From NCBI RefSeq assembly GCF_006345805.1, contig NC_043021.1, positions 28,862,793 to 28,926,792 on the forward strand: a stretch of 64,000 nt of DNA, in the 5' to 3' direction. The position numbers and the translations under genes were made by a program. Below the pieces are notes generated by a model. The model was not told the DNA's origin. It worked only from the letters and a program-made list of their open reading frames with translations, and made no database searches. This DNA comes from Octopus sinensis. Taxonomy: Eukaryota. How positions within the stretch are numbered: position 1 is the stretch's first letter; every line of letters starts with the position of its first letter. Below, piece by piece: positions 27,987-62,510 of the stretch.

Positions 27987-28022
<36 letters not shown>
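27121..28022. repeat. Compound (TA)n/(TACA)n/(TATG)n microsatellite
   Basis: Direct reading; source of many YI-repeat ORFs. Confidence 0.95.
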
Positions 28023-28023
<1 letters not shown>

Positions 28024-28109
28024 CGTAGAAAGGTTTTGGCCAGTATTGGCCCAGGCCATGTCTAACTTAAATAGCACCACCTGGCGAAGTCTTTCAATTC
28101 AGGATTTGG

Positions 28110-31100
28110 GCACCGAGGCCCATTCGAGCTGAGAGTTATTGTTTGCGGAGACATATCCGGGTGTGGGTGGTTTGTCCGGGACTGTTTGAAGGAATTTGTC
28201 CAAAGACTTCTTGAATTATGTGTGGTCAGTTTCTGTTTTGATGTGTCCTGGTGTAATGTTGAAGAGAGCGGGTCCAATTGAGGTGAAATAATTGTGCCGT
28301 ATTGTCGTTATGTGATGCGATTTAGATTTTTGCTGTGGACGGATGGCACGTGTTCCAAGCCTTGGATGTATTTTGAAGGTGATGCCAACATCATTCGGAC
28401 AGTGCTGATGGAATATTTTCCATATCATACAGATAATGTAGCGTTCACTGCGTCGTTGGAGTGAATACAGTTTCAGCTTCTCTAGTCTACCCCAGTAGTC
28501 AAGGTCTGACATGCCATCTATCTTTTTTGTGATTGACTTTGGGGAGCTTCAATTCTCATAACATTTTGTTTTGTGTATGGAGACCACAATGGACAGCAGT
28601 ATTCAAGGTGGGGTCGGGCAAAAGTGGAGAAGAGAAGGATAATAGTGTGGAAATCTCTCGACTGGAAGGTTCTGAGAATCCAGGAACACATTCTGCGGGC
28701 CATGTCAACTTTGCTGCTTATATGTGTAGCCCAGCTTATGTTGTTGTCCACTGTTACTCCCAAGTCTCTGATGTTGTTGGACGCCATGAGAATTTCTCCA
28801 GAAGGAAGGGAGTATGGGAGTTTCAGAGCGTCCTCCCTTCCAAAGTGGATCAGTTCGAATTTGTATTCGTTTAGCAACATGTTGTTCTTTTCCGCCCATT
28901 GGACAACAGCCAGTAGGTCTGACTGAAGGCTTATTCGGTCATCCACGCCATTGATGACCTTCTGGAGTTTGGAATCATCAGCGAAGGTTCTGATGTTAGT
29001 GTGTTTGATGGTGTCAGTAATATCATTTATGTAGATGATGAAGAGAAGTGGGCCCAACACAGTGCCTTGTGGGACACCACTGCTGACTTTGGCTGGGCTG
29101 GATTTGACTCCTTCGACTACAACATGTTGGGTTCTGTTAGACAGGAAGCACTTCATCCACTGTAGCAGCTTTCCAGTGACACTAATATTGGACAGCTTTT
29201 TCAAAAGGGTCTTATGATCAACCCTGTCAAAGGCCTTGCTGAAATCAAGGTAGATGACATCAGTGTTGGAACCCTCTCCCAAGGCTCTCAAAATGTCATC
29301 AAAATGATGCAGTAGTTACGTCAGGCAATCTCTTCCATTACGGAATCCATGCTGGTTGGAGTTCAGCATATTATGACTCTCAAGGAAGTGAGTCATATGC
29401 GATCTCAGCACTCTCTCAAATACCTTAATGATATGAGAGGTGAGTGAGATTGGACGGTAATTCACGGCATGCGATTTGTTTCCTTTTTTGAAAACTGGGA
29501 CAACAGACTGGGATAGAAGGTCTTCTGGTATATATCCAGCATCCAGTGAGTTCCGCCACAGATTGGCTAGAGGGGGTGCAAGTTGGTTTTGACACATCTT
29601 CAAGACACAAGCAGGGAACCTATCGGGACCTACTGCTGAATTATGCTTCATTTCCTTTATTACTGCTAAGACATCAGGAGCGCCAAAGGTTATGTCCGAT
29701 AAAGTGTATTGGGGAGTAACATCACTGATACAGCCCAGATCAGTCATATCAGGATTGCTGAAAACAGAGCAATATTGTTTCTGCAATATCTCTCCCATGG
29801 TTTTGGCATTGTCTTGAAGAGTACCATTTTCATCAATCAGAGGGCCAACAGTAGAACCAGTGACTGTGTTTTTTTGCAAATGAAAAGAACACTTTGGGAT
29901 TGAGTTTGATCTTCTCAATGGCCCAGGCCTCTTCAGCTCTTTGCTGACTATTGATGATAGACATCATGTTGTTTTGGAGTTTATGTTTTTTAATCTCTAG
30001 CGACGAGATGGCAGTCAGGTTGGTGTGTTGCTGTTGACAGTATTTCAGTATGTTGATCTTTTTGTTGATTCTTTTAATTTTCCTTATGAGAGATTTTCTA
30101 TTTCTAGGGATTCGACACTTAGATTTGTTTACAGATCTTAATGGGGTGTGTTTTGCACATATGTTCGTAATGGTGTCTACAAATGACTGCCAGGACTTTT
30201 TGATGTTAGTGGGTGTGTATGTGTGCGTGAAGGACCAATCGACTTGTGCAAGATCATTATTGATCGCTTCCCAGTTTGCATTGTGGAAATCCATAGTGTC
30301 AAATGGATGAACAGGAGGGATGACATTTGTTTTGCATTTTGGCCGGTGAAATCTCAGATCACAGAGAACCATGTCATGATCAGAGAGTAGGGTTTTCTCC
30401 ACTGCAATATTGTGGATAGTATCAGTGCGATTGCTGAAAATTAAGTCTAAGACGTTTTTATGACATCTCCTTGGTTCGAGCACCAGTTGGGACAGGAAGA
30501 AATCATCCATGAAGTCAAGAAGCGATTCCACTGCCTCCCTGTCAGGGGTTGAGAGAGAAGAACCTGGCGGCAGACTGTTTGTAGACCAGTCAACCCCGGG
30601 AAGGTTGAAGTCTCCCATCATTAAAATGTTGTCAGGTTGACACTGCTGAATGAAACACTTTATATTGTTGAGGCATTCCTTGAAGCATGGTAGGGGCGTT
30701 TTGGGTGGTCTGTAGAGCCCAACTACTGTTAAGTTGTTGGTTTGACTGAATACAGTGACTGCTTCACAGTATCCATTGGAAAATATGTTCATAGCTTCTG
30801 TTGAGAAAGAATCATGAACATAAATGGCAGTCCCACCCTTTCTTCTGCCAGCACGATCAGCACGAATGGCTTTGAAATTTTTAACTTTCACCTCGGCTTC
30901 CAAGTGAAGGTTACTAAGATGGGTTTCAGTGAGGACGAAGAAAGGGATGTGGTTTGGATGGGCATCGACCCAGTCCTCCAGGAATTTTATCTTCCATTTT
31001 TGAGTATTGGTGGAAGGGCTGATGCCTTGGGCATTAAGCAAAAATGTTGAGGCGAGAGTGGATGGTTTTAATTGTTTTGGTGATTTGTTTATTTGATTGC

Positions 31101-31113
31101 TTTTTAATGGCAT
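28110..31113 (-). pseudogene. LINE ORF2 (APE endonuclease and RT), multiple frameshifts
   Basis: LTETHL, KGGTAIY, YRPP, GDFNLP, LDLIF, SDH; YRPISLTS, QHGF, DFSKAFD, GVPQGTVLGP, FADD. Confidence 0.92.
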
Positions 31114-31298
31114 GTGCAGTGGGGTGATTGTGGTGGATGGTGGTGGGTGATAGCTCGGAAGTTTTTTCCAGTTCTTTTGCTAGATTTATTATAGCTAAAA
31201 AAGAGGAAGAAGAAGTTTCCTGTCTAGGGAACTGTAGGTGACTGTGGTTGTGGTTATTTTTATATGAGTGGTTATTTCTATATGAGTCGTAGGTTTTT

Positions 31299-31702
31299 TT
31301 ATTTTTTATTTTTATTATTATTTGTCCGATGAGTCCCCGGGAGATGGGTAAAGGGACAATCCCTGTGCAAACACAATCTGTCTTGCTGGAAATATCGGCA
31401 GATTTGGGGATTCTTTGTTTGAGATTTTGGTGGTTGTGGTGGTGTTGTAATAGGGTGGTGGCTTTTGTAGCTTGTGGGGATAATGCGTTTTGTCCCGGGT
31501 AAATGGGTGAATTTGCAGTCTCTATCAGTGCACAATCTATGGCGGAGAGAATAACGGCAAATGATGGGGTTTCGAGTGGGTGTGTGGGTGCGTGTGTGAG
31601 TTGTGAGAGGTGTGGATGATAGTTTGTCGAGGTTTTGGCGACCTTTGTAACCGGTGGAAGTAGTAGGAGGTAGATTCCTTGAGGTAGCAGTAGTAGTAGT
31701 AG

Positions 31703-31703
<1 letters not shown>
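31299..31703 (-). pseudogene. LINE ORF1 remnant with two CCCH zinc fingers
   Basis: [19 protein letters not shown] and [19 protein letters not shown] (C-x8-C-x4-C-x3-H). Confidence 0.75.
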
Positions 31704-31800
<97 letters not shown>

Positions 31801-31805
31801 TTATG

Positions 31806-31837
<32 letters not shown>

Positions 31838-31989
31838 TGTATATATATATGCATACATATATGTATATATATATACATACATATATATATATATACATAC
31901 ATATATGTATAACTATATACATACATATATGTATGTATATATATATACATACATATATGTATGTATATATATATATACATATATGTATG

Positions 31990-32027
<38 letters not shown>

Positions 32028-32031
32028 TGTA
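31704..32031. repeat. (TA)n compound microsatellite
   Basis: Direct reading. Confidence 0.95.
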
Positions 32032-32246
32032 TGAAAGTTTTTGAAAAATGACTATGAAAAGTGTCAGTCAGCACTTTTTATGCTTGTTTGCAATATTTTG
32101 CACATTTTTTTTCTGAAAACTTTTGTGATCTCCGGGTTAAGTATAATCTTATTATCAATCATTAAACTATTTACTGAAAAATTATTTGTATGAAAGTTTT
32201 TGTTAGATGAATATATTTCTTGTGTAATTATCATGTTATTATCAAT

Positions 32247-32423
32247 CCCTAACCCCAACGCTAACCCTAACCCTAACCCCAACCCGAACCCCCACCGTAA
32301 CACTAACCCTAACCCTAACACTTAACCCTAGCCCTAACCCTAACCCCTAACCCTAACCCTAAACCTAATCCTAAACCTAACCATAAACCTAACCCTAACC
32401 CTAACCCTACCCCTTAACCCAAA
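32247..32423 (-). repeat. Short interstitial telomeric array (CCCTAA)n
   Basis: About 29 degenerate CCCTAA units, same polarity as 6631-11386. Confidence 0.93.
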
Positions 32424-34225
32424 ATGGTGGTGGTGGTGATGTAGTGTCTCTTGTAAAAGAAGTTGAGAATAATGATATTCGGTATATTGGGTTTGTAAAC
32501 ATTACTGTCCCTGTAATAACAGTGCCTAAGGAATCAGAAAAAAAAAAACAAAAGAAAAAATAATCAGGCAAATATATAGAGCCAAAGTGTCAGGACTGAT
32601 ACCCTTGTATGTATACACACACACACACACACACCACATACAAAAAGCTGAAATAATCACTGCATGCTCATGTTACAGAGAAATACAATCAATACAATAC
32701 ACAAAAGCACTGAAATTGAAACACTTCCCACACCTAAAACAGATGAAATAGTGGGCAGTGGAAGCACACAATATCAATAAGACTGCTGATGATGGACTCC
32801 TCTCCCGTCGAAGACGACGTGTGTTCATCTTTTGCTGAACAACCTGTGCAAATGATTCCTTTGTAGCGTTCAAATGTTCACGCCACACATTTGCTCGCTC
32901 ATTCCATCAAACTGATGTTGTCTGAACAGGTTCCCAGTGTTGAAGACATTGCTGCACAGCAATGTGAGATGAAGTGTTTTGCTCAAAAACAAAGCTCACC
33001 CCTTCGGTCTAGGAATTGAATGTTAGGTGAGTATGTGGTTTCCAAAGCAACAGAAAAGTGGTATGAGCATAAACCAGAGGTTGTGATAGAAAATGAGAAC
33101 TACCAGATCTTGTGGGATTTCCCTATAAAGACTGACCAAGCTATTGATGCAAGAAGGACAGTTATGATTATAGAGGACAAAAATAGCAAACAGGAATAGA
33201 TCATAGATTTTGGAATTCTCTTTGATAGCAGAGTCAACACCAAAGAAATAGAAAAAAATTGAGAAATATCAGGATCTAGGTAGGGAGCTTCAGAAACTTG
33301 GAAAACTGAGACAACTATTATTCCTGTAGTAATTGGTGCACTTGGCAAAACATCCAAAGTTCTATCTAAAAGATTGAAAGAGACTAGAATTGAAACCCAC
33401 ATTGCCAACCTGCAGAAAAGTACTGTTCTATATTCTGCAAGTATCCTTAGAAAAATTCTGAAGATTTGAGGAGACATGTTATTACCAAACCTCAAGATAA
33501 AATACCAACTAGAATGTACTAGTTTAATAATAATAATTATTATAATTGACTTCAGATCTTAACTGATTCACTGATCATTTTTTGCTTTTAACCCTTGCCT
33601 TACTTTGTAGACATCACTGCCCATCGGAATGCCTGACAACAGGCAGCTCCAATGAAAGTCTAATCCGCCCCGTCACCTCTGAGATGTTCAGACTACACAC
33701 AAGCTAGTGGACTTAGGTGTAACGAAGTAGTCTTTCAGCCTCTCGAATGTTGCAACAGGAGACTCAGAAAAGATTTCACATGGACGTTCGGTGCGTTGGC
33801 CTCCAGCGATGAGCGAGCTGTCCTCACTGACATTACGTCCATGTTTGTCCGCGAAGAAAATGTGATGTTCGTTCGTGTGCAGGAAGGACAAATGCGCCTG
33901 GATCGGGACGAACCTGTTAGAATATTGGCTGTATGTCGTCGATGGCAGTCTGCAACCTCAAAGTGCACATCATAGTTCGCGATATTCTTGTAAGTGTGTC
34001 GGAGGACGAGGAGATACGCCTTGACATGACATTGGACAACGCTCAGCCAGCTGTCTCATGGGCCCCAGAACTCACCGCGAATTCCAGTTCATATAAAAAC
34101 TAGGAGCGGCAACGCGCAGTAAATAAATCCGACAAACTCCATGATATACTCACCGCAAACCCCTGCAGTCACTGCTGAAAATACGATTGAAGACGTCATG
34201 TACAGGAACGCATGCGGAAATGCTC
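32424..34225 (+). repeat. Left arm of ~1.8-kb inverted duplication
   Basis: Reverse complement of 35100-36971; identical ORFs on opposite strands (e.g. 33100..33495- and 35898..36293+). Confidence 0.95.
33030..33545 (+). mobile_element. R4/Dong-like LINE 3' fragment (restriction-like endonuclease domain, (TAA)n tail)
   Basis: Translates KWYEHKPEVVIENENYQILWDFPIKTD...IIPVVIGALG...LQKSTVLYSASILRKIL, then TAATAATAAT. Confidence 0.78.
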
Positions 34226-34480
34226 CGCCTACAACCACAAATACGCTACCTAACGAATCCTCTTCCCAACCTTCTATTGTTGACCACCATATATATAATG
34301 AACGCTGTGATTCGTGTGGAAAAAGTTCCTCCGCCCCCCATCCTTTCATCGCTACCTTCATTCAAGCCACGAAAGCATCGGGTTTCGCCACCTCCCTGTC
34401 ACGACCGACCCAAGTTATCCGTCACAACGCTATGGCAGACACTGGATGCCATTCGGGCCTGGTCAGACGATGTAGATAGG
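33615..34480 (+). mobile_element. Degenerate Gypsy-like LTR retrotransposon gag-protease remnant
   Basis: REENVM, DRDEPVR, DEEIR motifs; aspartyl-protease-like AMADTGC near 34430. Confidence 0.65.
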
Positions 34481-34976
34481 AAACGATTCAATGTATCCAT
34501 CAGAAAAGGGAAGATGCCTAACCCATTTAATATCCTTCTGGTGGCGTACGGCACCACAAAAATTTGATATGGAGTAGTTTATAATTACGTCCATAGTTTT
34601 TAAAGTGAGATTATTTTCAAATAATTGCCATTTCAAAGTCATGGCAAGAGTTTTGTTTCTTGAAAAGTTTTGGTTCTTGAAGAGTTGTGTTTCTTGTCGG
34701 TTAAGGGAAATAATTTGAAGTCATGGCAAGAGTTGTGTTTCTTGTTGCTTAAGGGAAGTAATTTGAAGTAATGTTAGACTTACTTCCCTTAGAGTGTGTT
34801 TTAATAATTTTGAATTTTAAGTGATTTTTTGCCTTAAATGTGTCTTAAATTATAATATATGGACCTAATGGTATGGAAGTGAAGTCGACTTAGACGAAAA
34901 TTCAACTCGGAACATGAAGTCTGATTAAATACAACTAACTCATATATCGTTCTTTGTGTGGGTCTCTCTCTCTCTC

Positions 34977-35020
<44 letters not shown>

Positions 35021-35022
<2 letters not shown>

Positions 35023-35103
35023 TCTTTACTCTTACACTTTTACTCTTTTACTTGTTTCAGTCATTTGACTGCGGCCATGCTGGAGCACCGCCTTTAGTCG
35101 AGC
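35021..35103 (-). mobile_element. SINE 3' tail
   Basis: On -: GGCGGTGCTCCAGCATGGCCGCAGTCAAATGACTGAAACAAGTAAAAGAGTAAAAG. Confidence 0.8.
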
Positions 35104-36971
35104 ATTTCCGCATGCGTTCCTGTACATGACGTCTTCAATCGTATTTTCAGCAGTGACTGCAGGGGTTTGCGGTGAGTATATCATGGAGTTTGTCGGATTC
35201 ATTTACTGCGCGTTGCCGCTCCTAGTTTTCATATGAACTGGAATTCGCGGTGATTGGGTAGTTCTGGGGCCCATGAGACAGCTGGCTGAGCGTTGTCCAC
35301 TTTCTTTTGCCTCGACGTACTTTGGAGCTTCTTCCAATGTCATGTCTAACTTGGAGTCACCCATAGTGTCAGGGCGTATCTCCTCGTCCTCCGACACACT
35401 TACAAGAATATCGCGAACTATGATGTGCACTTTGAGGTTGCAGACTGCCATCGACGACATACAGCCAATATTCTAACAGGTTCGTCCCGATCCAGGCGCA
35501 TTTGTCCTTCCTGCACACGAACGAACATCACATTTTCTTCGCGGACAAACATGGACGTAATGTCAGTGAGGACAGCTCGCTCATCGCTGGAGGCCAACGC
35601 ACCGAACGTCCATGTGAAATCTTTTCTGAGTCTCCTGTTGCAACATTCGAGAGGCTGAAAGACTACTTCGTTACACCTAAGTCCACTAGCTTGTGTGTAG
35701 TCTGAACATCTCAGAGGTGACGGGGCGGATTAGACTTTCATTGGAGCTGCCTGTTGTCAGGCATTCCGATGGGCAGTGATGTCTACAAAGTAAGGCAAGG
35801 GTTAAAAGCAAAAAATGATCAGTGAATCAGTTAAGATCTGAAGTCAATTATAATAATTATTATTATTAAACTAGTACATTCTAGTTGGTATTTTATCTTG
35901 AGGTTTGGTAATAACATGTCTCCTCAAATCTTCAGAATTTTTCTAAGGATACTTGCAGAATATAGAACAGTACTTTTCTGCAGGTTGGCAATGTGGGTTT
36001 CAATTCTAGTCTCTTTCAATCTTTTAGATAGAACTTTGGATGTTTTGCCAAGTGCACCAATTACTACAGGAATAATAGTTGTCTCAGTTTTCCAAGTTTC
36101 TGAAGCTCCCTACCTAGATCCTGATATTTCTCAATTTTTTTCTATTTCTTTGGTGTTGACTCTGCTATCAAAGAGAATTCCAAAATCTATGATCTATTCC
36201 TGTTTGCTATTTTTGTCCTCTATAATCATAACTGTCCTTCTTGCATCAATAGCTTGGTCAGTCTTTATAGGGAAATCCCACAAGATCTGGTAGTTCTCAT
36301 TTTCTATCACAACCTCTGGTTTATGCTCATACCACTTTTCTGTTGCTTTGGAAACCACATACTCACCTAACATTCAATTCCTAGACCGAAGGGGTGAGCT
36401 TTGTTTTTGAGCAAAACACTTCATCTCACATTGCTGTGCAGCAATGTCTTCAACACTGGGAACCTGTTCAGACAACATCAGTTTGATGGAATGAGCGAGC
36501 AAATGTGTGGCGTGAACATTTGAACGCTACAAAGGAATCATTTGCACAGGTTGTTCAGCAAAAGATGAACACACGTCGTCTTCGACGGGAGAGGAGTCCA
36601 TCATCAGCAGTCTTATTGATATTGTGTGCTTCCACTGCCCACTATTTCATCTGTTTTAGGTGTGGGAAGTGTTTCAATTTCAGTGCTTTTGTGTATTGTA
36701 TTGATTGTATTTCTCTGTAACATGAGCATGCAGTGATTATTTCAGCTTTTTGTATGTGGTGTGTGTGTGTGTGTGTGTATACATACAAGGGTATCAGTCC
36801 TGACACTTTGGCTCTATATATTTGCCTGATTATTTTTTCTTTTGTTTTTTTTTTCTGATTCCTTAGGCACTGTTATTACAGGGACAGTAATGTTTACAAA
36901 CCCAATATACCGAATATCATTATTCTCAACTTCTTTTACAAGAGACACTACATCACCACCACCACCACCAT
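35100..36971 (-). repeat. Right arm of the inverted duplication (second copies of the Gypsy and Dong remnants)
   Basis: Reverse complement of 32424-34225; keeps gag segments missing from the left arm (DTMGDSKLDMTLEEAPKYVEAKESG). Confidence 0.95.
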
Positions 36972-37517
36972 CATTTTGTTTCTTTCTTTTTCCTACAAAT
37001 ACCCTGTCAACCATTGCAACTGTTGCCTCTTTAAGGAGACGTATTTTCTTTTCCCAGAAGCTCTTAGGCAATAACATCTGGATGATTTCCTTTAATCTCT
37101 ATCAATTGGCACTTTCTCATTCTCTGAGACATTGGTGTGAATTTTCACTTTCTTTTTCTGCTTATATCCCTTAATAAAATACTATGGTTTTGAATGGCAT
37201 GAATTTCATGTACTCTGCAATATCAACAGAAATCAGGCTATTCTTGCATAAATTTATAAATATTTTCTAGTTCCATAAGAACCCATTTCTTTATATTTTT
37301 GGTATAGTTTAGTTTTCGTTTGTCAGCATTTGTGTGGTGTATTCTAAATGTGGTTATTATTTCCATTCTTTTCCTGTCTAGTCTTGCTAATTCACTTAGA
37401 TTCCAGCCAGAACAGTGAGACCACTGATACCTATTATCTCATTTTTGGCATTTTTCTCAGTTTTAACTATTAATCTAATGCATCAAAAATATTCTTTCCT
37501 AACCTCTCCTTTTCGTC

Positions 37518-48669: not shown

Positions 48670-49227
48670 AATAAATAAAAAAAACTTCAGTATATATATT
48701 TTTACTTCAGAACATCTATCTATATTTTTAACTTGTTTCATTTACTGAACTGCAGTCATGTTGGGGCACAGCCTTCAAGGGTTTGCTCAAAGAAATCGAA
48801 TGACCTGAGTACATATTCTTCAGCCAGGTACTTATTTTTATGCTGAACTCCTAAGATACTGGGATGTAAACAAACCAGCACTTGTTGTCAAGTGGTGGGG
48901 GTGGACAAACAAAAAGACCAAGACATATACACAAAAATCCATATATTCATACATTATATATATATATATATATTTGTGAAGGCTTGGCAAGTATCTCAAC
49001 TGGCAGGACTGACTACCCTGTCTTCAGGTGCTAATCCTAGCTGGTGAAGGTGCTTGCCTCCCCTTCGCAAATGTAAGGACACAGGAAATGTGTCAAAGGC
49101 GACAGGAAGCGTTGATGCATCCTAGGGCTAAGTAGCAGTGATGTAATTCCCTTTACAGGACTGTCACATTATGTTGACAATATACAACCACTCTCTCTCT
49201 CTATATATATATACACATATATATTCT

Positions 49228-49425
49228 TATATTTGTTTCAGTCATTTGACTGTGGTCATGCTGGGGCACCACCTTTTTTAGTTGAAGAACACAACCCCAG
49301 AACTTATTCTTTGTAAGCCTGGCACATTCTATCGGTCTCTTTGCCAAACAGCTAAGTTATGGGAATGTAAATACACCAACATTGGTTGCCAAGCAATTTT
49401 GGGGTGGCAGACAAAGTCACAAAGC

Positions 49426-49477
<52 letters not shown>

Positions 49478-49674
49478 CATATATTTACACACATACATAT
49501 GTATATATATGACAGGCTTCTTTTCAGTTTCCATCAACCAAATCCACTCACAAGGCTTTGCTTTCCCAGAGGCTACATTAGAAGACACTTGCCCAAGGTG
49601 CCACTCAGTAGGACTGAACCCAGAACCATGTGGTTGGGAAGCAAGCTTCTTACCACACAGTCATGCCTGTGCCT

Positions 49675-49712
<38 letters not shown>

Positions 49713-49870: not shown

Positions 49871-51409
49871 CATTGATGCCAGCCATACCTTCACTAGAAA
49901 TATTTGAAAAAATTCAAAATATTCATAATATCACAACACATTTACAGGAGACAAAATCTAAAAAAATATTTCACCCTAAAATTAGAATGAAATATTGGTT
50001 TCAAATTTGGCACAAGGTCAATTTCAGGGAGGGGTTAAGTCAATTACATCGACCCCAATGCTCAACAGGTGCTTGTTTTATCGACCCTGAAAGGACAAAT
50101 GGCAATGTCAACCTCAGTGGAATCTGAACTTACAACACAAAGAGAAACAAAATGCTACTAAGTATTTTGCCAGGCATGATACCTATTCTGTAAGCTTGCC
50201 TCCTGAAACTAGTATGAAATATCAATTTCATGATGTTCTTAGGAAATTAGCTTTGCTTTTTATTGTAACATTAAAAAGGTAATGAAACAAACGGTGTTGG
50301 TCACAGGATTCTTGATTTGCCACAATGAGTTGCTATATTAAATGGTTAGAAACTTCTGATGTATAAGAATATAAATTTCAAACATTTCTACAATGTCACA
50401 CTTTTTGGAGGTATAGTATATAGTTGCTTAATTTGAACCTAGTACTTGCTTTTTTCAACCCTACTCACCTCAGGAGAATGATAGGCAAAATTTGACCCCA
50501 GATGATGATGATGGGGAAGAGACTGAACACAAAAAAATCTTTCACAAATATTGAAATTTGAAATCATTCAGCAATTTATGATAAATTATTCTTCAAATAA
50601 GATTGTGATTGAAATTTAAATTTTAATTTAAAGAATTCTTTATTTTTTTCTTTTTAAATTACCATCAATTTCATATCTGAATTAAAATTTTCATGTCCTT
50701 TTTTTTATTCTCATTCCTAGATTTTTTAATTATGAAAATATTTCAGCTTTTGTTAAACTGTAATTCCTCCCAATACAATAAATAAATATATAAATAGTTA
50801 AATAATAAAACATAAAAATAATACAATAATAAAAAGGGAGAAGCAAAAATCATTTAAAATCTAAAATAGAAATTAAAAACTGATAATTTAATTAATATAT
50901 TAATTAAATTAATATGCACACAGGCATCATCATCATCATAATTACCATCATCAACAACATCGAATAGGCAGTGCCCCAGTATGGCCATAGTCTAATGACT
51001 GAAACAAGTAAAAAAAGATAAATCACTGTTATAATATTGCCTATTTAAATTTATTATTTATTTTACAGTGACACATATGAAGAGAGGTCTGGCTTTGATC
51101 GACCCTTTAATGTTTAAACCAGGTCCAAATATTGTATGTTTCATGTACAAACTGGCCAGATTCAGCCTTTCACACTTACCCTACTGTGTCATTCTAAAAA
51201 TTATACAATCATCAGTGAAATCTCAAAGCTATGAGATAATTCATGTTAAAATTCAAACCAATTTGAATAAATATGCATTATATCTGACAGATGTTTGAAT
51301 AATTAGATATTTCAGCTTGTCAATTTAGTTCAGTCTCATCCTGAACACAACTGCTATTCAATAAATACATTTTTTCATTTCATCCTCAACATAGTTTAAA
51401 TCTCAAGTA

Positions 51410-61360: not shown

Positions 61361-62510
61361 ATTTTTTATTTATTTATTTATTTATCTAGTTTCTGCTCAC
61401 AAGCTGTGGTCATGCTGGGGCACCGCCATTTGGTTTTGCTACATGATTTTACTTCATGAATGCTTTTTAGCAATTGCCATTTGGAGCATGAGAGAGTTCG
61501 ATGCAGCTGCCCTCATCTGCACCTCCTGCTGTGAAGTTGGTTCATCTGGGATACCTGACAAGAAGAGATCCAGTTTCATTTTAAAGACATCTGCATCCAC
61601 CCCATGCAGGTCTCTTAGGTTCTTCGGGAGGATATTGAAGAGCTGTGGGCCTCGGAAGCCCAGGCTATCACAGTATCTTGTCCTACATCTTGATGGCAAA
61701 TTTGGAGTCCTAGGCACCACGCAGTGGTGCCCAGTTCTGGCATTTGTGTAACTCTCGATGTCAAAGTTTGGGACAAGTCCCTCCAGGATTTTCCAGATGT
61801 ATATTATGGCATATCTATCCCGCCTACGCTCCAAGGAATATAGTTTTAATCTCTTGAGTCTTTCCCAGTAGCTTATATTCTGCATAGAGGCTATCTTCTT
61901 CGTGTAGCTACGTTGGATCGACTCAAGTTCCATGATCACCTTGATACTGGATGGTGACCATAGCTGGGAGCAATAGTCAAAGTGGCTTAGGAAAAGTGTC
62001 CTCCAGAGGACCATCATGGTTTCTTGTTCTCTTGTTCTAAAGGTTCTGAGAATCCATCCGGCCAGTAGTCTACATTTCATTGCCAATTTAGCAACATGTA
62101 CACGAAAGGTTGCGTCATCACTCATGTAAATACCCAGGTCACGCACTGATTGTGCCTCTGGGATTGCAATTCCTCCGGGTCCAGTGTATTCATTGGGTAT
62201 TGCATTTAGTTTTGCATGCTGATTAGTATAAAGCTTGAAACTTTTTAGCATTGAACTGCATGCTATTCTTTTCAGCCCACTTGTATATTTTGTCCAGCTC
62301 ACATTGCAGGCGTTTAGTGTCCTCAGGGTTCTGTATTGCCTGTGAAACTTTTGTATCATTTGCATAACTTGTGATCGTGGCTCTCTGCATGGCTGAAGGC
62401 ATGTCTGAGAGGGCCATTATGAACAGTAGTGGTCTCAAAACAGTGCTCTGCGGAACACCGCTCACTATTTGCGTGTTAATGGTGGCTACTACCACCTGAC
62501 ATCTATCTTT
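61361..62510 (-). mobile_element. 5'-truncated CR1/L2-group LINE (RT C-terminal half, 3' UTR, (TAAA)n tail)
   Basis: ORFs 62223..62513 (GVPQSTVL, YAND) and 61454..62365 (LERRRDRY, LDLFLSGIPDEP). Confidence 0.9.

Follow-up and report, generated by a model that had tools for sequence, protein, structure and literature searches.

A putative fold-back inverted duplication joined to a degenerate telomeric tract in Octopus sinensis

Fold-back inverted duplications have been described with spacers of 766-70,466 bp and microhomologies of 2-8 bp (Hermetz et al. 2014, PMC3907307). In tumours, fold-backs bridged by L1 have been reported with 1-5 nucleotides (nt) of microhomology at the 5' end of the insert (PMC7058536), and the ends produced by target-primed reverse transcription (TPRT) have been reported to fold back, in association with breakage-replication/fusion, in both tumours and cell clones (bioRxiv 10.1101/2024.12.14.628481). 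In yeast, the capture of a telomere after fold-back is far commoner than de novo addition (PMC10622511), and in humans point mutations have been reported near replicative junctions (PMC4352052). Here, an inverted duplication that lies next to a short telomeric array in Octopus sinensis (contig NC_043021.1) was analysed within a 64-kb stretch of DNA, called the window throughout, which is eukaryotic, rich in repeats and free of N. We hold it somewhat probable that the locus arose by a recent fold-back from the plus-strand end at 35104 onto 34221-34225, after which the right arm was synthesised, with errors at first, the template side was broken at 32420 and an older telomeric tract was captured.

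The locus shares with the class described in PMC3907307, which includes inverted duplications with translocation, the inverted arms, a single-copy spacer in the reported size range, a short inverted microhomology where the spacer ends and an additional, outer junction; also as in that class, one arm is native to the spacer and the other is a novel join. It differs from those cases in that its arm measures 1.8 kb, versus 10 kb to tens of Mb in the excerpted table rows, and in that it is joined on the outside to a telomeric tract that is short, old and internal, with 32 kb of sequence on its far side. The missing 5' part of a short interspersed element (SINE) at the junction is at most suggestive of a loss of DNA distal to the spacer. 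The likeness to retrotransposition-mediated fold-back (PMC7058536; bioRxiv 10.1101/2024.12.14.628481) consists of a tail-bearing, 5'-truncated retro-insert at the junction, a 5' microhomology of 1-5 nt and two same-direction breakpoints that lie close together, whereas those reports deal with L1 in human tumours or cell clones and the present case is a short SINE in an invertebrate genome assembly. In the fold-back inversions of yeast (PMC10622511, PMC7467729), stems of 4-5 bp prime and a secondary rearrangement then captures a telomere-bearing segment, which resembles what is seen here; nonetheless, capture in yeast proceeds mostly via long repeat homology and the loops are typically tens of bases, while the outer join of this locus involves 1-4 nt. 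In its workings the locus corresponds to fold-back inverted duplications whose end was captured, and two hallmarks of de novo healing are absent from it, namely young canonical repeats (unless the variants are base-calling errors) and a terminal array. Literature searches, of partial coverage, turned up neither this locus nor any SINE-primed fold-back from an invertebrate, and the supplements of bioRxiv 10.1101/2024.12.14.628481 may hold closer cases.

Arms, spacer and inner junction

By self-BLAST, the arms are recovered as a single inverted match, 32425-34225 / 36967-35100, with 95.9% identity, 69 gap bases and an E value of 0.0. This pair is the longest and the most identical of the three inverted matches of at least 150 bp and at least 85% identity found in the window with dust on. 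An earlier note on this DNA, made from the sequence alone, had described near-identical arms of ~1.8 kb around a spacer of ~870 bp; the comparison agrees with this description, and the arm ends given there (32424 and 36971) were off by a few bases. The ends reach 32420 and 36978 if a 6-nt slip in a (TGG)n run is allowed. In the outer 1.6 kb of the arms, 1600/1600 aligned bases are identical, with 0 mismatches and 7 gap bases that all fall within two simple repeats, and the 95% upper bound on the divergence of the outer arms is 0.19%. The parts of the locus are as follows, in positions of the window.

32247-32420, plus strand: short degenerate (CCCTAA)n array, oriented as at a left end; it probably existed beforehand and was captured at the outer junction.
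32420-34225, plus strand: left arm (A), native partner of the spacer, with three deletions; the gag reading crosses 34225/34226.
33682-34461, plus strand: broken gag with a remnant of the protease start of a Ty3/gypsy-like long terminal repeat (LTR) retrotransposon, covering left arm and spacer (118 relatives, tblastn).
34021-34125, plus strand, in left-arm coordinates: cluster of arm differences, made of deletions of 24, 37 and 7 nt and three substituted sites.
34221-34225, plus strand: template-side microhomology TGCTC, the nearest of four TGCTC 5-mers upstream of the SINE end (31000-35040).
34226-35099, plus strand: single-copy spacer of 874 bp, with the end of the gag/protease remnant, AT-rich DNA, (TC)n(TA)n and the SINE 3' piece.
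35022-35104, minus strand: young, 5'-truncated SINE fragment, ~64 bp of the 3' end and the repeat tail, which abuts a (TA)n run; the fold-back junction lies at the 5' end of the fragment.
35100-35104, plus strand: junction microhomology GAGCA, of which 4-5 nt are common to SINE and arm.
35100-36978, minus strand: right arm (A'), in which the gag reading is cut at 35100, the deleted blocks are retained and substitutions are found at 35200, 35230 and 35372; likely the newly made copy.

The SINE fragment at the inner junction is 87% identical to the 3' end of a 459-bp copy located elsewhere in the window (49222-49680), and its tail abuts (TA)n, like that of the copy at 49222. A query with the forward frame of the SINE gave no candidate, while the reverse-frame query gave one, the outside record P0119. 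This record is a translated SINE copy that is identical to the junction fragment at 22/22 residues and then continues as SINE beyond the junction. The seven other core-bearing SINE copies of the window match P0119 at only 5-10/14 residues, which suggests that the junction copy is young, on the basis of a short, 22-residue stretch in which silent sites are not visible.

The left arm ends in five bases, TGCTC, that are complementary to GAGCA at 35100-35104. That GAGCA belongs both to the arm and to the SINE had been proposed from the sequence and from a SINE consensus. The arm side of this proposal holds, whereas the SINE side holds for 4-5 nt by way of P0119, whose codons cap the overlap between SINE and arm at 5 nt and support 4-5, with the wobble bases unseen; the SINE copies of the window are too diverged for testing GAGCA. 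A match of this kind at a random join has a chance of 0.018 for at least 4 nt and of 0.005 for at least 5 nt. The folding of 34150-35104 gave no hairpin at the junction, and a longer imperfect pairing beyond the 5-nt match was discarded, given that duplex energies gave it no support. Between 34226 and 34960, the spacer has no second copy within the window save for an internal 27-bp repeat.

The SINE family is presumably one from octopus genomes, and we take it to be of tRNA origin; Rfam gave no tRNA match on the SINE head, and a literature search for a 20-mer of the SINE gave no match. Six more copies of the SINE-tail core, at 50986, 59530, 60830, 61069, 61408 and 63061, cease to match within a few bases after the core ends, so that 3' fragments of very small size, from this family or its relatives, are common in the window.

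Concerning other content of the duplicated DNA, no host gene was recognised in the locus, and Pfam gave no significant family on the scanned stop-free stretches of the arms and spacer, the single hit of 0.056 being under the cut-off. A broken reading at 33020-33466 (mirrored at 35927-36373) is followed by a TAA-rich tail; it resembles the 3' endonuclease end of a long interspersed element (LINE) of the R2/R4 type, a label that neither Pfam nor Atlas supported. A transposon with large terminal inverted repeats was rejected as an explanation of the arms, since the inner end cuts the gag reading and the outer flanks are, by inspection, devoid of a common direct repeat. We take the locus to be repair debris within decayed transposon sequence that serves no function itself.

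The native arm and the differences between the arms

Which of the two arms is native was established from the gag-like reading. With the stop-free stretch of the right arm as query, a full HMMER search gave 118 relatives; a word-indexed search for longer relatives gave 8 candidates, none of them significant. Protease, reverse transcriptase (RT) or RNase H domains are found in 5/14 of the relatives scanned, and the relative P0104 matches the Ty3 Gag-Pol structure (7q5b) with an E value of 1.5e-20, which together identify the reading as a broken Ty3/gypsy-like gag. In tblastn, the relatives P0017 and P0008 align through 34225/34226 on the left arm and onward into the protease start, whereas on the right arm the reading is broken off at 35100. 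It is thus to the left arm that the spacer belongs, in line with the earlier observation that it is contiguous with the distal, telomere-side arm: the gag reading passes unbroken from the left arm into the spacer.

All differences between the arms, beyond two simple-repeat slips, are confined to positions 34021-34125 of the left arm. The left arm lacks blocks of 24, 37 and 7 nt, all in the gag-like reading and within 52 bp of each other, with flanking microhomologies of 4, 4 and 1 nt; small deletions in gag had already been noticed as separating the arms. The relatives P0001, P0004 and P0005 have the blocks that the left arm lacks, so that at these three deletions the left arm is the derived one. 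The right arm carries three transitions, located 96, 126 and 268 nt past the junction, and the comparison with the relatives makes all three look derived in that arm. Near 35372, the left-arm residue is found in 64 of the 118 relatives and the right-arm residue in 1, with other residues in 17 and the motif unmatched in 36. For site 35230, 51 of them have the left-arm residue or a conservative partner and 0 have that of the right arm, with the motif unmatched in 55. At site 35200, three relatives (P0004, P0005 and P0017) lean towards the left arm by inspection.

The occurrence of six differences within 105 bp was reproduced in 0/400,000 uniform simulations, from which the two simple-repeat slips of the outer arm were excluded. 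The value is 0.0007 when the deletions are counted as one event, and 0.010 for the three substitutions alone. The differences are polarised, with deletions on one arm and substitutions on the other, and they cluster at the junction, which agrees with the earlier view that the arms are not a plain read echo. ADAR editing via an RNA template was also considered for the substitutions; two of the three fit one strand, and the idea was dropped as unsupported.

The telomeric array and the proposed order of events

Two (CCCTAA)n arrays are found in the window, both in left-end orientation, at 6627-11386 (4.76 kb, degenerate) and at 32247-32420 (174 bp). The shorter one (28.5 copies and 80% matches by TRF, with 12 perfect hexamers in its 174 bp) abuts the left arm, so that the arm does start where the array ends, as the earlier note had stated. 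The array meets the arm in telomere register, with 3/4 of the last arm bases matching TTAG, and its orientation fits healing, given that the TTAGGG strand runs 5'-3' away from the break (CCCTAA on the plus strand to the left of the arm); the 3/4 match is also expected for a microhomology-mediated capture. Relative to canonical repeats, the array has 16 substitutions in 171 aligned bases and 3 indels. This compares with 3/1801 substitutions between the arms (Fisher p = 4e-15) and with 3/205 in the inner arm (p = 6e-4). Since N-free sequence of 32 kb extends beyond the array, it is not a chromosome end. Neither this sequence nor the degeneracy of the array is mentioned in the earlier note. Being more diverged than the arms and internal, the array looks older than the duplication, and capture therefore fits better than the de novo telomere addition that had been proposed from the sequence. 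Had telomerase added the array after the duplication, the array would since have had to erode, be buried and decay by ~9%, all with 0 substitutions gained by the arms over 1.6 kb, whereas the joining of an existing tract is one step. That the short array derives from the long array was also considered, and the comparison of their variant spectra gave it no support.

In the course of events that we favour, a break and resection would expose ~0.9 kb or more of the plus strand, whose 3' end, GAGCA, would pair with the nearest upstream TGCTC (34221-34225). Synthesis from this pairing would make the right arm, with the first 270 nt copied with errors that would leave the three substitutions. The template-side copy would be broken or nicked at 32420, 1.8 kb out, with the spacer staying on the distal arm, and the end at 32420 would be joined, through a 1-4-nt match in telomere register, to an existing (TTAGGG)n-like tract that would bring the left-hand DNA along. 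The deletions of the left arm would likely be replication slips in a hairpin-prone structure. Fold-back priming by microhomology, as had been proposed before, is in accordance with the geometry of the inverted arms, the single-copy spacer and the 4-5-nt match at the switch. The flip of the spacer that had been suggested alongside it can be dispensed with, since the observed orientation arises without inversion when a fold-back is broken on its template side: the fold-back strand would read B-A-S-A'-B', and the break would leave B-A-S'-A', read from the anchored end, with the spacer native to the distal arm. This argument from spacer orientation is derived from the model in PMC3907307.

Several points weigh against this reading. 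Fold-back synthesis by itself leaves the deletions in the template arm unexplained, and for a dicentric bridge one would expect a break farther from the junction than 1.8 kb. With a rank of 82/2603 for a 12-nt primer and no stable extension, the 5-nt pairing is weak and unexceptional. As to polarity, a second alignment, with one deletion, makes site 35372 uninformative, the relatives other than P0001 are only ~35-60% identical, and the placement of all three substitutions on one arm has a 25% probability by itself. For the short array, no donor was identified, and its variant spectrum is unlike that of the long array (11,064/20,000 uniform draws scored as high); if its variants are base-calling errors, the age argument is void. 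An endonuclease-like reading across 36978, which would have marked the right flank as native, did not reach significance, with 13/150 random stretches and 10/100 shuffles scoring as high. Finally, the structure is seen in one assembly only.

The geometry can also be obtained by a replicative repair of the minus strand with two switches, through microhomology-mediated break-induced replication (MMBIR) or a fork template switch, in which case it would be the left arm that was newly made. While the right arm was being copied toward the spacer, the nascent strand would jump ahead at the SINE to the opposite template, copy back spacer and arm for 2.7 kb and then switch to a telomeric tract. This accounts for a short arm without a dicentric and for the microhomology-flanked deletions of the left arm, and the observed orientation of the spacer follows directly from it. 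Switches from leading to lagging template at short interrupted inverted repeats have been described (PMC10766183), but the inverted repeats surveyed in that study span at most 250 bp, versus 874 here, and the derived substitutions sit on the right arm, that is, before the switch in this model, so that we regard it as quite unlikely. Unlikely, to a lesser degree, is the model of the earlier note once adapted to the data, a fold-back followed by de novo telomerase addition at 32420 and burial, with an array that has since decayed or been miscalled, outer arms homogenised by gene conversion or palindrome correction, and a spacer that may have inverted. The array does have the correct orientation and begins in register, as described above. 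Derived changes are found on both arms, as in an older duplication, arm-to-arm conversion is known in large palindromes (PMC8600007, PMC8981503), and the second array in the same orientation, at 6627-11386, suggests repeated healing and burial. Nonetheless, the divergence of the array exceeds even that of the inner arm, the changes in the array are mainly substitutions (16 versus 3 indels), and the arms are free of substitutions up to their outer edge, where conversion should fade; moreover, addition, erosion to 174 bp, burial and decay each cost time, and the spacer orientation is obtained without a flip.

Sequencing libraries are known to yield artefactual inverted chimeras with short microhomology. 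The structure could be a fold-back chimera created in amplification or sequencing, or else a wrong join made at the telomeric array, that was fixed in the assembly, and the region is indeed repeat-rich and subtelomere-like. A chimera of one molecule predicts random error only, whereas here the deletions of one arm are flanked by microhomology and the transitions of the other are polarised, with both clustered at the junction; there are no N gaps, and two haplotypes would differ along the whole arm. An artefact is for these reasons decidedly unlikely, and the least probable of the explanations considered.

The role of the SINE is a separate matter, and within the favoured fold-back with capture it may either have been present beforehand or have been inserted in the same event. 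The SINE fragment whose 5' end marks the junction is young and still has its tail, so that the end which folded back may have been created by the SINE insertion, an option that the earlier note does not raise. In such a course, TPRT at (TA)n would add ~80 nt of SINE cDNA to a cut chromosome end, and the 3' end of the cDNA (GAGCA) would fold back or fuse to the resected end 0.87 kb upstream. The SINE family covers at most 2495/27,022 bases to the right of the arms, which makes a chance break within a young copy with its tail kept unlikely (~1% by our estimate), whereas the SINE-primed model predicts it. The low prior for SINE-primed events keeps the gain modest, and that the insertion caused the rearrangement is a possibility we put forward tentatively, and as doubtful.

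The event is of a known kind, one more fold-back inverted duplication in decayed transposon DNA. Its value is that of a natural record resolved to the base, in which the new arm can be distinguished from the template arm and the mutations cluster at the junction, as models of replicative repair predict. It also illustrates that telomeric repeats bordering a duplication are not necessarily the mark of a healed chromosome end. If it is true that the SINE made the end, retrotransposition-primed fold-back would extend from human cancer cells to the germ line of an invertebrate.

Neighbouring sequence in the window

The long array at 6627-11386 is uniformly degenerate, with 398 substitutions against 4328 matches (8.4%), of which C-to-A changes make up 168/398; these may be either real variant repeats or a systematic base-calling error. 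On its left, a LINE of the endonuclease-RT type (2407-6629, plus strand) has a (TAAC)n tail that passes in register straight into the array, with the 5' end of the LINE facing away. Such a layout at 2407-11386 is expected for an insertion primed by a telomeric 3' end, or for a tail that favours such targets. On the other side, the long array adjoins a GC-rich scrambled block at 11387-25900 (~11.4-26 kb), which contains four pieces of 28S rRNA and many internal repeats of 70-90% and looks like decayed or rearranged ribosomal DNA. An older inverted repeat lies inside this block (17590-18389 / 22278-23073, 800 bp, 88.5% identity), perhaps from an earlier inversion or fold-back. No tRNA genes were called in the window.

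The AT-rich flank to the left of the short array (32033-32246) has words of 23 and 19 bases in common with 13069-13147, just before a 28S piece, one of them inverted and the other direct, and a direct repeat of 16 bases is found in the same flank (32028/32187). Further to the left, in the region 28022-31700, a frameshifted LINE of the endonuclease-RT type lies on the minus strand (~28.2-31.7 kb) between two (TA)n arrays, and an open reading frame with a weak match to a CCCH zinc finger lies upstream of it. One LINE segment is present in two copies, 360-801 and 61843-62285, which are 94.6% identical and 61 kb apart.

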